DNA from: a virus
Taxonomy: Duplodnaviria > Caudoviricetes
Strand: one strand, 5' to 3'
Length of the DNA stretch: 64,000 nucleotides
Virus record (IMG/VR): IMGVR_UViG_3300032007_000017
This document shows positions 5,468 to 22,361 of this stretch, piece after piece (position 1 is the stretch's first letter; each line of letters opens with the position of its first letter). Under the pieces are notes generated by a model that was given only the letters and a program-made list of their open reading frames with translations, had not been told where the DNA came from and made no database searches. The position numbers were made by a program, and so were the translations under genes.

Positions 5468-6124
5468 ATGAAATATATCGGTAGAGAAGAAATTATCACT
5501 GATACCAAAGATTGGACTGTTCCCAAAGCTAGAGATCAGAAATTCCAGGTTGCTCTTTATGGCGCTGGAGGATCTGGCTCTATCAATGGAAACTATTTCC
5601 AAGATGTTGGTGGAGCTGGTGGTGGTTCCGGCGATTATGCTTTTAAAGAGCTGGAACTTAAAGAAGGAGATCGCATTCATATTGAGATCGGTAAGGGCGG
5701 AGAAGGTATGACTGGCTCTGACAAAGTAGCTGATTATATTGGCCACATTGTCGGTAAAACTGGTGGTACTACGTCCTTTGGAGAGTATCTTTTCGCTGTC
5801 GGTGGCCTTGGCGGAAATATCAACCAAGGTGGAGATGGCGCAAATGATGGTGGCGCTACCGGTGAGACTGCCGAAGGCCACTATTTTGGAAACGGTTCTT
5901 CTGGTACCGTTGACGGTTTAAACTATACTTCTGGCGGTGGCGGTGCTGCTGTTAATGCCCGTGGTGTCGGCGGATCGGCCGAGTTCAACCAGGGTAATGG
6001 CGGTACTTCCGCTGGCGGAGCTGGATGCTTCGTAGAGAAGGTTGACGGGAAAGTTTCTCGTCGTATTGGTGCTGGTGGTAATGGTGTTTGTATCATTACC
6101 TATTATGCTCCAATTGGTGGTTAA
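5468..6124 (+). CDS. Glycine-rich tail-fibre tip/adhesin-like protein
   Basis: GAGGSG...IEIGKGG...GGTTSFGEYL...GGNGVCIITYY; paralogue of the 19877 and 21147 genes. Confidence 0.7.
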   Translation: MKYIGREEIITDTKDWTVPKARDQKFQVALYGAGGSGSINGNYFQDVGGAGGGSGDYAFKELELKEGDRIHIEIGKGGEGMTGSDKVADYIGHIVGKTGGTTSFGEYLFAVGGLGGNINQGGDGANDGGATGETAEGHYFGNGSSGTVDGLNYTSGGGGAAVNARGVGGSAEFNQGNGGTSAGGAGCFVEKVDGKVSRRIGAGGNGVCIITYYAPIGG

Positions 6125-19876: not shown

Positions 19877-20974
19877 TTAATCTTGTATTTCCCAATAATA
19901 GTATTGGATTATGCATACGCCATCTCCACCATTTGATGTAATTTGATTATTACCATCAGTAAAATCACCACCATTAGCAAATAATCCATATCCACCACCA
20001 CCTCTTCCATTTGCTGGAGTATAGTATCCTCCGCCACCTCCACCATTATCTCCTCCTTTAGCAGATTTTCCATATCCGCCACCGCCTCCACTTGCACCAC
20101 TACCATAAAGAGTATATACCATATAAGAAGAAGCAGCTGCTGTTGAATTTCCACCATTACTTCCATAACCTCCACCTCCTCCAAATGCTATATTATAAAA
20201 TGATGTATTATATCCACCACTCCATCTATCTCCATTAAGTCCTACTCCTCCATATGCAATTCCTTGTTCTGATTCTTCTACATCATTAAAACCGATAGTA
20301 TTTGTTCCTTCATATCCATTTAAATGAGATGAATCTCCTCCATTACCACCATATATTCCTCCAATTCCACTCCCTCCAGTAGCTTTTATTCTTTTCCACC
20401 ATTTACTTTCCCAACAATCTAAATATATTCCTCCGCCACCTCCTCCCCATGGGCCACCATTTCCGCCTCGCCCATTGATATCTATTGTTTTACCGTCAGT
20501 TCCGCAAGTTCCAGAACACGTGAGTCCTCCCCCTCCAAATTGATAACCAATTCCTGCAGTTCCATAATTATTACTATCTGGGCTTCTTGTTAAATAACCA
20601 CCACCGCCACTTCCACCATTTCCGCCACTTCCACCAACTCTAATATCCCATGCTCCTCCTCTACCATTAGCACTTAAATAATCGCCAAATGCTGTTGTAC
20701 CTCCAGCTGTATATGTTCCCCCTCCAGTTCCAATTGTTATATTTATTGTCTCATTTTTATTAATAATTATAGAATCATTATTCATCCATCCTCCTCCACC
20801 TCCTGCCCAGAGACTACCACCTCCTCCGCCACCAAAAATTCTAACATGAAATTCATTATTTATTGCTTTAGGAGTAATGTATTCTTGGCTTTTTGTAATA
20901 ATATCAGTGCGAAGTACTTTAATTGCATTTAATCCACCAGAACCACCACGTCTGCTAATAATTCCTTCACTCAT
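19877..20974 (-). CDS. Glycine-rich adhesin-like protein B
   Basis: MSEGIISRRGG...VRIFGGGGGG...GGTTAFGDYLSANG...GDGVCIIQYY; polyglycine repeats with variable loops. Confidence 0.75.
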   Translation of the reverse strand: MSEGIISRRGGSGGLNAIKVLRTDIITKSQEYITPKAINNEFHVRIFGGGGGGSLWAGGGGGWMNNDSIIINKNETINITIGTGGGTYTAGGTTAFGDYLSANGRGGAWDIRVGGSGGNGGSGGGGYLTRSPDSNNYGTAGIGYQFGGGGLTCSGTCGTDGKTIDINGRGGNGGPWGGGGGGIYLDCWESKWWKRIKATGGSGIGGIYGGNGGDSSHLNGYEGTNTIGFNDVEESEQGIAYGGVGLNGDRWSGGYNTSFYNIAFGGGGGYGSNGGNSTAAASSYMVYTLYGSGASGGGGGYGKSAKGGDNGGGGGGYYTPANGRGGGGYGLFANGGDFTDGNNQITSNGGDGVCIIQYYYWEIQD

Positions 20975-20977
20975 AAA

Positions 20978-21007
20978 AGAGTACTCTCCTTTCTAGGAGA
21001 GTACTCT
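20978..21007 (-). promoter_or_regulatory. 13-bp hairpin sequestering the SD of gene B
   Basis: mRNA AGAGUACUCUCCU-AGAA-AGGAGAGUACUCU-UUU-AUG. Confidence 0.85.
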
Positions 21008-21044
21008 ATAACAGCACCCTCCTCGAAGATATAGTAGTTATTAA

Positions 21045-21122
21045 CTACCCTTCCGGGGGGGGGGCAAACTGAATCAAACTAGTTCTATTGTGGATGTGAA
21101 CCAGCATATGAAGATGAATCAT
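21045..21122 (-). CDS. Leader peptide containing a C10 tract (MIHLHMLVHIHNRTSLIQFAPPPEG)
   Basis: SD-like AAAGGGG; one extra C extends it to 50 aa ending in an ATGA overlap with gene B. Confidence 0.65.
   Translation of the reverse strand: MIHLHMLVHIHNRTSLIQFAPPPEG
21055..21064. repeat. G10/C10 homopolymer (candidate phase-variation tract)
   Basis: Ten consecutive G in AT-rich DNA. Confidence 0.9.
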
Positions 21123-21146
21123 AGTTATAAGCCCCTTTATTAAGGT

Positions 21147-22223
21147 TTAAGCATAATACTGAACTATGCAAACACCAGAACCGCCTGTTCCGCCGCCTCC
21201 TGAATTACTAGAATTTCCTTCTCCACTACCCCCTCCTCCGCCAAGTATTCCATTATACCCCCATCCATTTTGAACAGCATCTCCTCCATTACCATATCCT
21301 CCTCCTCCCCCTCCACCTAATGTATTGCCATTTCCACCTTTACTAAAATAGCCTCCACCACCAGCACCACCTCCCTGAATTCCCCATTTTCCCCATCCTC
21401 CATTTGCATTTTTTCCATATCCTCCCCCACCTCCACCATAATTACCACCACTACCTCCGTATCCACCACCTCCACCACCATAAAAAACATAACCATATCC
21501 AGTATATGAATTAATTCCTTTTCCTCCATTACCGCCAAACCCTCCTCCACCACCATATTCCCCTCCAATTGCAGGACCTTTAAAATTATCTGATATATTG
21601 GTCCATAACATTGTATTTGTTCCATTGCTTCCATTTACTCCATCTGATCCTCCTCTTCCGCCATAAATACCATTGCTTCCCCATGGAGATCCACCTCCTC
21701 CATAGGTTCCTCCACTGCCGCCTTGACGAGTTCCTCCTCCACCACCACCCCACATACCTCCATTACCCCCATTATAAGCACCACCTCCAGCACCTCCACC
21801 AAATTGATATCCTATACCACCATTTCCTTGACCTCCACCTCCACCTGAACCGCCACTACCTCCATTTGCTGTAACGGAAGAGCCTGTTCCGCCATTAGCA
21901 CTTAAATAAGTACCGAAAGATGTAGTTCCACCAGTTCTTGAAGGTATTTGAGCATTGCCTCTGGCTCCGCTTCCTCCTTCTCCAATAATAACAGAAATTT
22001 CCGTTCCATTATCGATATCAAAATCTCCATTATTCATCCATCCTCCTCCTCCACCTCCTCCACGTTGAGCACCGCCTCCACCACCTCCAAATATTCTTAC
22101 ACTTACATTTCCTTTATGGTTAGGTATAGTAAATGCACCAGTCCCTAAAAATAATGTAACTAAATTTCCTCCACCACCTCCAGATCCTGAACCACCTCTC
22201 CTACTAATTACCGCCTCACTCAT
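21147..22223 (-). CDS. Glycine-rich adhesin-like protein A (start MSEAVISRRGG)
   Basis: Paralogue of gene B with the same N-terminus and C-terminal GSGVCIVQYY. Confidence 0.75.
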   Translation of the reverse strand: MSEAVISRRGGSGSGGGGGNLVTLFLGTGAFTIPNHKGNVSVRIFGGGGGGAQRGGGGGGGWMNNGDFDIDNGTEISVIIGEGGSGARGNAQIPSRTGGTTSFGTYLSANGGTGSSVTANGGSGGSGGGGGQGNGGIGYQFGGGAGGGAYNGGNGGMWGGGGGGTRQGGSGGTYGGGGSPWGSNGIYGGRGGSDGVNGSNGTNTMLWTNISDNFKGPAIGGEYGGGGGFGGNGGKGINSYTGYGYVFYGGGGGGYGGSGGNYGGGGGGYGKNANGGWGKWGIQGGGAGGGGYFSKGGNGNTLGGGGGGGYGNGGDAVQNGWGYNGILGGGGGSGEGNSSNSGGGGTGGSGVCIVQYYA

Positions 22224-22361
22224 ATATTTCAACACTCCTTTTATCGAGGAGGGTGTTGACAATTTTATAAAGAGAAGGATCAATATCCTTCTCTCAGAAA
22301 TGAAATAGTGATAGCCCTCGCTATCACTTCTTAATGTTTTTAACAAGGCCCATCACCTCGC

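Follow-up and report, generated by a model that had tools for sequence, protein, structure and literature searches.

Can the length of a homopolymer that lies outside a structural gene decide whether that gene is translated? The question is raised by a 64,000-nucleotide stretch of viral DNA (Duplodnaviria; Caudoviricetes; IMG/VR record IMGVR_UViG_3300032007_000017), hereafter the window, in which two genes for glycine-rich, fibre-like paralogues stand in tandem on the minus strand, with a run of ten cytosines in the spacer between them. The upstream member, gene A (21147..22223), encodes 358 amino acids (MSEAVISRRGG...), and the downstream member, gene B (19877..20974), encodes a 365-amino acid putative receptor-binding fibre or adhesin (MSEGIISRRGG...). 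An initial annotation, made without database searches, proposed that changes in the length of the run switch gene B on or off by way of a short leader translated ahead of it. In bacteria, surface structures are well known for phase variation; to our knowledge, it has so far been reported for phages essentially only in Campylobacter phages. We examined the proposal by frame enumeration, RNA structure prediction, and comparison with homologous loci, and we consider a stochastic switch in the leader reading frame, which would gate the translation of gene B, to be the best explanation and a probable one. Coordinates refer to the window, and features lie on its minus strand unless stated otherwise.

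The leader open reading frame (ORF) occupies positions 21045..21122 in the assembled sequence and comprises 25 codons, MIHLHMLVHIHNRTSLIQFAPPPEG, followed by TAG. Its start codon, ATG 21122-21120, lies 25 nt downstream of the gene A stop codon (TAA 21149-21147) and 148 nt upstream of gene B; a further in-frame ATG is found at 21107. Ten nucleotides ahead of the start is a weak element resembling a Shine-Dalgarno (SD) sequence, AAAGGGG (21132..21138), which is kept as AAAGGGGCT in unit 4 of a related locus, L018. The slippage-prone C10 tract (21055..21064) is inside the leader, 80 nt upstream of gene B, and is followed by a stop cluster, TAG-T-TAA-TAA (21038..21047), at which the leader meets a stop 7-11 nt past the tract in two of its three frames. 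This design recurs in units 2 and 4 of L018.

We then enumerated the leader frames for tract lengths from C7 to C14. With C10 the leader ends at TAG 21047-21045, and with C9 or C12 it ends at TAA 21043-21041, behind which a second TAA stands at 21040-38. With C8, C11, or C14 it remains open for 27 more codons, crosses a hairpin that contains the SD of gene B, and ends at TGA 20973-20971, which overlaps the gene B start codon (ATG 20974-20972) in an ATGA stop/start arrangement (20971..20974). Relative to gene B, the stops of the closed (OFF) frames are at -73 and -69, the 5' arm of the hairpin is at -33, and the read-through stop is at +1, so that the OFF stops fall at least 33 nt upstream of the 5' arm (37 nt for the TAG used by the assembled C10). 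Thus, the frame toggles in silico with tract length between an early stop and read-through to the start of gene B. The frame of gene B itself is closed upstream, both by the TAA at -69 and by a TAG in the loop of the hairpin. No change in tract length can therefore join the leader to gene B, and the coding sequence is left untouched whatever the length. The course of the leader from ATG 21122, its early stops at C9, C10, and C12, its read-through at C8 and C11, and the unaltered coding sequence were all described in the initial annotation; our enumeration reproduced each of them and added C14 to the read-through lengths.

The tract is of the kind expected at slipped-strand phase-variation loci, where hypermutable repeats are G or C runs of about 8 or more. 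The window, which has a G+C content of about 37%, holds just two G/C runs of at least 7, namely the C10 described here and a C12 some 250 nt before gene A, against our own estimate of ca. 0.006 for the expected number of C or G runs of at least 10. Since both runs precede glycine-rich paralogues, their placement is not a matter of chance.

The SD of gene B (AGGAG) lies in the 3' arm of a perfect 13-bp hairpin with the loop AGAA (20978..21007), and 3 nt separate the end of the stem from the ATG. The arms are AGAGTACTCTCCT (21007-20995) and AGGAGAGTACTCT (20990-20978), and the latter is followed by TTT-ATG. The local hairpin has a folding energy of -21.6 kcal/mol, in line with the burial of the SD described in the initial annotation, and the whole 181-nt region folds with z = -4.07 relative to shuffled sequences. 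The predicted probability that the SD zone is unpaired is 0.008 and is the same at every length from C7 to C13; the possibility that tract length alters RNA folding or SD exposure was ruled out on this ground. Because predicted structure and exposure are constant over this range, tract length would be readable only as reading frame. A masked SD, here paired in a stable helix, and an overlap of stop and start are two of the features that characterize translational coupling; the overlap takes the form ATGA at C11 in the window, and ATGA, TAATG, or a TGA at +5 in relatives.

To place this hairpin in a wider context, we compared predicted folding in the 45 nt upstream of glycine-rich gene starts with that of other genes on the same DNA. 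The medians were -13.9 and -5.2 kcal/mol, respectively (Mann-Whitney p = 1e-7), and the most strongly folding "controls" proved to be additional cassette genes. Covariation was counted in ten units on RNAfold helices anchored at the SD core, because the MAFFT alignment of the hairpins was not consistent with the structure. Helix positions 5-12 each show two to five pair types without a single mismatch, and occasional G-U wobbles at the outer end of the helix are the sole irregularity. Judged by this pattern, the hairpin is under selection and is kept complementary while the sequence of its stem diverges. Throughout the family, the stems contain the SD and end 1-8 nt before the start codon. The tails that follow the stem in relatives (TCTATG, ATTAATG, TTATAATG, and AATG) have no U-tract, and a scan for intrinsic terminators did not flag the hairpin of gene B; we therefore regard the helix as a mask for the SD rather than a terminator, and rejected the latter identity. 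A search of Rfam returned two sub-threshold chance matches only.

Tract length varies at this very locus. An exact-protein look-up identified a second assembly, L040 (JGI metagenome 3300028886), that carries both genes. Its alignment to positions 22470-19646 of the window spans 2825 nt and shows a single mismatch and a single gap; the gap is in the leader tract, which is C9 in L040 and C10 in the window; the other 200 bases of the spacer between genes A and B are identical. A third assembly, a 270-kb contig in ENA that encodes identical proteins, has a gap of 171 nt between the genes instead of 172, whereas two other intergenic gaps (415 and 90 nt) equal those of the window, a spacing that fits a C9 tract. 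Repeat length thus differs between otherwise near-identical genomes, as it does at phase-variable loci, and the invariance that the initial annotation had named beforehand as grounds for abandoning the idea was not found, given C9 in L040 and C10 in the window. By their frames, the assembled C10, which stops at TAG before the hairpin as had been claimed, and the C9 of the sister strain would both be OFF. Contigs also tend to break at the tracts: L040 ends 4 nt past the C12 of gene A, the Logan contig SRR9008757 begins 66 nt before gene B and 14 nt past the 3' end of the tract, and L027, L029, and L030 begin within a tract.

The same module recurs in relatives. Gene B homologues lie on contigs of about 250-270 kb from human-gut and other metagenomes, and ca. 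35 loci were compared. Ahead of the glycine-rich genes, a common set of elements comprises a leader ORF, a pyrimidine repeat of either poly-C or (CT)n, the GAGGAGGGTG box, an SD hairpin whose arms covary, and an overlap of stop and start. Read-through leaders begin alike, with M(F)NI(K)H. Four tandem glycine-rich genes are present in the L018 group, the closest relative with available DNA. Its unit 1 has the SD hairpin stem of gene A, with one loop base different and C13 upstream, and its unit 2 has a poly-C leader that begins MIHLH and is homologous to that of the window, which makes unit 2 the likely counterpart of unit B; the leader of unit 4 is similar. Samples of this group differ in the length of the tracts, between flanks that are otherwise the same. 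In unit 4, five samples have C11, which reads through the hairpin to a TAATG overlap, while one with C12 and one with C10 meet a TAA just past the tract. In unit 2, four samples have C11 and read to a TGA at +5, and one has C10 and stops early. Thus, the read-through frame and the stop/start overlap, whose conservation had been put forward as a check, are kept in divergent relatives, and C11 is the read-through length in most L018 samples.

In other lineages, (CT)n occupies the same position in the leader. The (CT)11 of L002 and L003 gives a 36-amino acid leader ending in ATGA, with (CT)9 at the same site in L006; another unit reads through with (CT)8 and stops early with (CT)10 and (CT)13; and a (CT)7 unit present in eight samples reads through in all of them. 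In each of the seven leader-type units, at least one frame runs from the repeat to the start codon without a stop. Against shuffled sequences, the probability of such an open frame is 0.19-0.49 per unit, for a product of 7e-4; because the seven units are related, this is no more than an upper-bound argument. Leader ORFs with an overlap also exist without a repeat (L013-b, with TAATG) or with merely (CT)4 (L001), which suggests that leader coupling is ancestral and that the repeat makes it switchable.

Several further observations were made in these relatives. In the (CT)9 allele of the L002-type unit (L006:404, minus strand), the regulated gene begins with GTG and the leader ends with a TGA at +5. 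A conserved ATGAATATTAAACAT mini-ORF starts directly after the upstream gene at L002:6340-6372 and L005:4669-4710 (both plus strand). The end of the L002 copy overlaps the leader that contains the repeat, in the form TAATG; this arrangement suggests that coupled mini-ORFs relay from gene 1 to gene 2. Divergent intergenic regions at L005:3447-3529, L006:3432-3529, and L007:3450-3529 contain C22-28, then T20-25, then C19-21, with lengths that differ in every sample and assemblies that break there. Close relatives were sought among GenBank phages, by RNA polymerase subunit in IMG/VR and JGI metagenomes, and in IMG/VR also by protein, by alignment, and by an exact match to the hairpin; these searches returned only one distant IMG/VR locus, L004, and a scan of IMG/VR for the pattern of poly-C followed by the box gave two unrelated matches of high G+C content.

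These features would be accommodated by the following mechanism. The ribosome-binding site of gene B would be locked in a stable hairpin and closed to free 30S subunits, and the sole access would be provided by a ribosome translating the short leader. At C8, C11, or C14, one frame in three, that ribosome would pass the GAGGAGGGTG box and both arms of the hairpin and terminate on the TGA of ATGA, unmasking the SD so that gene B could be initiated afresh or by re-initiation (ON). In the remaining two frames, the ribosome would stop 7-11 nt past the tract, and the hairpin would stay closed (OFF). Slippage during replication would alter the tract, so that the progeny would include both gene-B-ON and gene-B-OFF genotypes while the coding sequence of gene B stayed the same. 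We infer from the arrangement that translation of gene B depends on translation of the leader, as well as a rate of switching and a role in adsorption. Because gene B resembles fibres and adhesins, the likely pay-off is bet-hedging in host recognition.

The closest precedent is the pil1 pilus/adhesin locus of Streptococcus gallolyticus, in which a repeat lies in a separate leader-peptide ORF upstream of the locus (Danne et al. 2014, PLoS Pathog 10:e1003860; PMC3894217). There, the short leader ends 39 bp before a hairpin and expression is low, while a frameshifted long leader ends in or after the hairpin, which the ribosome melts, and expression is high, as was proven experimentally (PMC3894217). 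Unit B has the same geometry of leader and hairpin, with a short leader that stops well upstream of the hairpin and a long one that ends in or past it, and the regulated coding sequence is untouched in both systems. As a pil1-type switch demands, the repeat sits in a separate leader ORF with its own start codon, and it does so likewise in seven related units. The two systems differ in that the pil1 repeat is a GCAGA pentamer in a bacterial host, whereas here it is a C homopolymer, or (CT)n in relatives, in a jumbo phage. Moreover, the pil1 hairpin is a transcription terminator, whereas the hairpin described here contains the SD, at 3 nt from the AUG, and the ON leader ends in a stop that overlaps the start codon. 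Unlike pil1, the element lies between tandem fibre-like genes, in genomes with many units that each have their own repeat. Because its hairpin is not a premature terminator, we consider unit B a translational variant of pil1 rather than a member of that class.

Several observations weigh against a simple frame switch. The SD of the leader is itself weak, and among the three assemblies of the window locus (C10, C9, and the C9 deduced from spacing) no C11, or ON, allele was found. In the L018 group, the deviating C10 and C12 alleles are found on contigs that are short or of low coverage (about 2-4x for L022 and L019), and they could reflect either noise in the assembly or minority variants that were sampled. 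A ratio of one frame in three is not universal, since two (CT)n units, including the L006/L002-type unit, have two frames that reach the start codon. Slippage of RNA polymerase on C10 could blur a strict OFF state, or make it leaky. Poly-C tracts with the GAGGAGGGTG box also occur without any leader ORF across the tract, ahead of gene A, six units of L023, units 1 and 3 of L018, L033, and the first genes of L001 and L002, and tract length varies in units of this kind too. Since leaderless units exist and vary in length, poly-C must have a frame-independent role there or be simply unstable. The initial annotation, whose coordinates and frames for unit B all held, had passed over both the conserved box and these leaderless units.

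These units bring us to an alternative in which the poly-C tract is an RNA or DNA structural or regulatory element and not a frame counter, the leader being secondary and the changes in length neutral slippage. The tract would pair with the box, hereafter the G-box, in a switch composed of poly-C, G-box, anti-SD arm, and SD, or would bind Rho or a poly(C)-binding protein. A copy of the G-box (GAGGAGGGTG; 21015..21024 in unit B) is present in every cassette unit of the family, and in every unit folded the minimum-energy structure predicted by RNAfold pairs it with the poly-C or (CT)n repeat. Family-wide, its consensus is an exact complement of the anti-SD arm (CACCCTCCTC) of the hairpins of first-in-cassette genes, and the G-box of unit B, read as TCGAGGAGGGTG (21015-21026), is a perfect 12-nt complement of the anti-SD arm of the gene A hairpin (22244-22255). 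The G-box could thus act as an anti-anti-SD, possibly linking the expression of genes A and B. Within unit B, however, the G-box forms only ca. 5 bp with the anti-SD arm, as compared with the 13-bp hairpin, and predicted SD accessibility is equally low at all tract lengths. A purely structural role would also leave unexplained the well-placed leader starts, the stop clusters that close two frames, the third frame that stays open and ends on the start codon in all seven leader-type units, the existence of repeat-free leader ORFs, and the dominance of C11 in units 2 and 4 of L018. We therefore regard the structural element as an unlikely replacement for the frame switch in unit B, although a second, frame-independent layer built on the same components probably exists.

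Two other accounts were weighed. In one, phage or host RNA polymerase slips on C10, and a fraction of C11 transcripts yields constant low expression of gene B from every genome. RNA polymerases are prone to slip on homopolymers of about 9 or more residues, as in Thermus dnaX and Shigella mxiE, and the tract here is 9-10 nt long; moreover, the three assemblies are in an OFF frame yet have an intact gene B. The (CT)n repeats of other lineages, however, are not classic slippage sites, and the length differences between samples are observed in DNA. Both mechanisms can coexist, and we consider transcriptional slippage as the whole explanation improbable, somewhat more so than the structural element. 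In the other account, the hairpin would end the transcription of gene A as an intrinsic terminator, or act as an attenuator like that of pil1, so that the leader would control transcriptional read-through into gene B. It draws on the TTT that follows the 13-bp stem, on the proven use of a terminator in pil1, and on the lack of an obvious promoter for gene B. Against it stand the negative scan and the tails without a U-tract reported above, the invariable presence of the SD in the stem, and the exact termination of the ON leader on the start codon. In addition, the phage encodes its own split multisubunit RNA polymerase, so standard terminator rules may not apply. Of all the readings, we find this one the hardest to credit. 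Stalling on poly-proline (PPPG) was set aside, as (CT)n leaders encode LSLS instead. The frame switch thus remains the explanation that we favor for unit B.

The unit ahead of gene A illustrates the leaderless arrangement. The second tract, C12 (22474..22485), belongs to the same module family and is followed by the G-run GGGGGGAGGG, a terminator-like hairpin with T8 (22394-22371), two more hairpins, and the bulged SD hairpin of gene A, whose true start, ATG 22223, is set by the conserved MSEAII N-terminus. In our frame enumeration, no leader frame from the C12 reaches gene A at any tract length. Homologous long-leader units in relatives have C12-C28, with lengths that differ between samples. 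In unit B and its leader-type relatives, the G-box would also be translated, being read as Glu-Glu-Gly in six of seven ON leaders; the leader of the window reads it this way only at C11. A general role for the G-box as a phage promoter is unlikely, as exact copies are found only in the cassette. A separate observation concerns L023:700-8800, on a 130-kb contig from a Hadza gut sample, where six glycine-rich genes are each preceded by a promoter-like TTATAGTAAAA, C12-C14, and a GAGGGAGGAGGGTG box. The units have strong CACCTTCCTC/GAGGAAGGTG SD hairpins, and none of the six has an ATG leader ORF across the tract.

The label "adhesin" for gene B is reasonable but unproven, and it rests on domain and structure comparisons. 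Gene A scores 20.6 bits against the Pfam family Gly_rich_2 (PF21722), below the cutoff of 24.3, and gene B has no Pfam match, but PF21722 is present in many gene B homologues. An AlphaFold2 model of gene B, built from an 18-sequence alignment, has a mean confidence (pLDDT) of 67.7, which is moderate. The top Foldseek matches of this pLDDT 68 model are the fibre gp24 of cyanophage Pam3 (the best, E = 2e-3), the Bxb1 tail tip, and the glycine-rich domain of ALK/LTK, with E = 2e-3 to 5e-3 and probabilities of 0.99-1.0. The putative fibre encoded by gene B has in common with Pam3 gp24, the S16 adhesin gp38, and the glycine-rich domain of ALK (PDB 7YPX, 7YFW, and 7LIR; PMC9608196) repeated GGGG-x-GG motifs with variable loops between them and a preceding beta-sandwich, but it lacks the N-terminal helical shaft of gp24. 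The window derives from a jumbo phage and also encodes a structural protein of the virion, a split RNA polymerase beta' subunit (phrog_2987), a WDGH-domain protein, and an anaerobic ribonucleotide reductase activase. Neither a G/C homopolymer nor a leader module precedes a third glycine-rich paralogue, which is shorter (5468-6124, plus strand; 218 amino acids, 27% Gly). In relatives, a Spo0A_C-domain protein adjoins the cassette (L005:7841-8293, minus strand, with equivalents in L006-L012), and this neighbor, together with strong AGGAGG-type SDs, hints at a Firmicute host.

How much of this design is new? Its components are individually known, namely phase variation by repeats, leader-mediated melting of hairpins, stop/start coupling, and poly-G switching in phages. 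Translational coupling through an SD-sequestering hairpin or an overlap is familiar from trpB-trpA (UGAUG/AUGA), from the MS2 coat-to-replicase and lysis genes, and from ermC-type leaders. In these classical cases, as in unit B, an upstream ribosome opens the SD helix, with overlaps that are ATGA and TAATG here; classical coupling is constitutive or responds to a drug or metabolite, whereas here a hypermutable repeat would set whether the ribosome arrives at all. Helicobacter pylori sabA, oipA, and hopZ and Neisseria opa have CT or CTCTT repeats in the region encoding the signal peptide. These pyrimidine repeats encode Leu-Ser near the 5' end of the adhesin, much as the (CT)7-13 of the relatives described here encode LSLSLS in the leader, but they lie within the adhesin ORF and not in a separate one. 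The tracts of Campylobacter phages are said to be associated with host-recognition or structural genes and to lie inside the coding sequence, truncating or restoring the protein. The tract described here belongs instead to a leader ORF upstream of the structural gene, which is left intact at every length. Hypermutable poly-G tracts in Campylobacter phages, and phenotypic diversity created through homopolymer slippage by the phage and not its host, are reported by Sorensen et al. (2021, Cell Rep 35:109214; cited in PMC10877375). The initial annotation knew of no described phage system of this build. This stands for the exact combination, as our literature search found no description of a separate, repeat-bearing leader ORF that gates a masked SD by translational coupling before each gene of a fibre cassette in gut jumbo phages, with poly-C and (CT)n interchangeable; it does not stand for the principle, which is known from pil1 (PMC3894217), or for poly-G switching in phages, which has been reported.

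A broader, more tentative proposal, which we think could well prove wrong, extends to the ca. 260-kb gut jumbo phages with AR9-like split RNA polymerases as a group. These phages may possess cassettes of two to six or more fibre genes, each behind its own hypermutable pyrimidine repeat, with repeats in leaders gating SD hairpins, so that one lytic genotype would continuously spawn combinatorial fibre repertoires, a heritable form of bet-hedging on host range; the poly-C/G-box/anti-SD/SD elements might then represent an uncatalogued class of cis-regulatory RNA. If the switch is confirmed, it would supply a compact and portable translational ON/OFF module, composed of repeat, stop cluster, SD hairpin, and ATGA, as a counterpart to the pil1 attenuator. 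Consensus assemblies that collapse the tracts would need more careful interpretation, and the finding would bear on genome-based prediction of host range and on models of the arms race between phages and bacteria. Gut phage populations would be mixtures of adsorption types made at the rates of mutational hotspots. Across the whole lineage, individual host-recognition genes appear to be switched while the structural gene itself stays intact.

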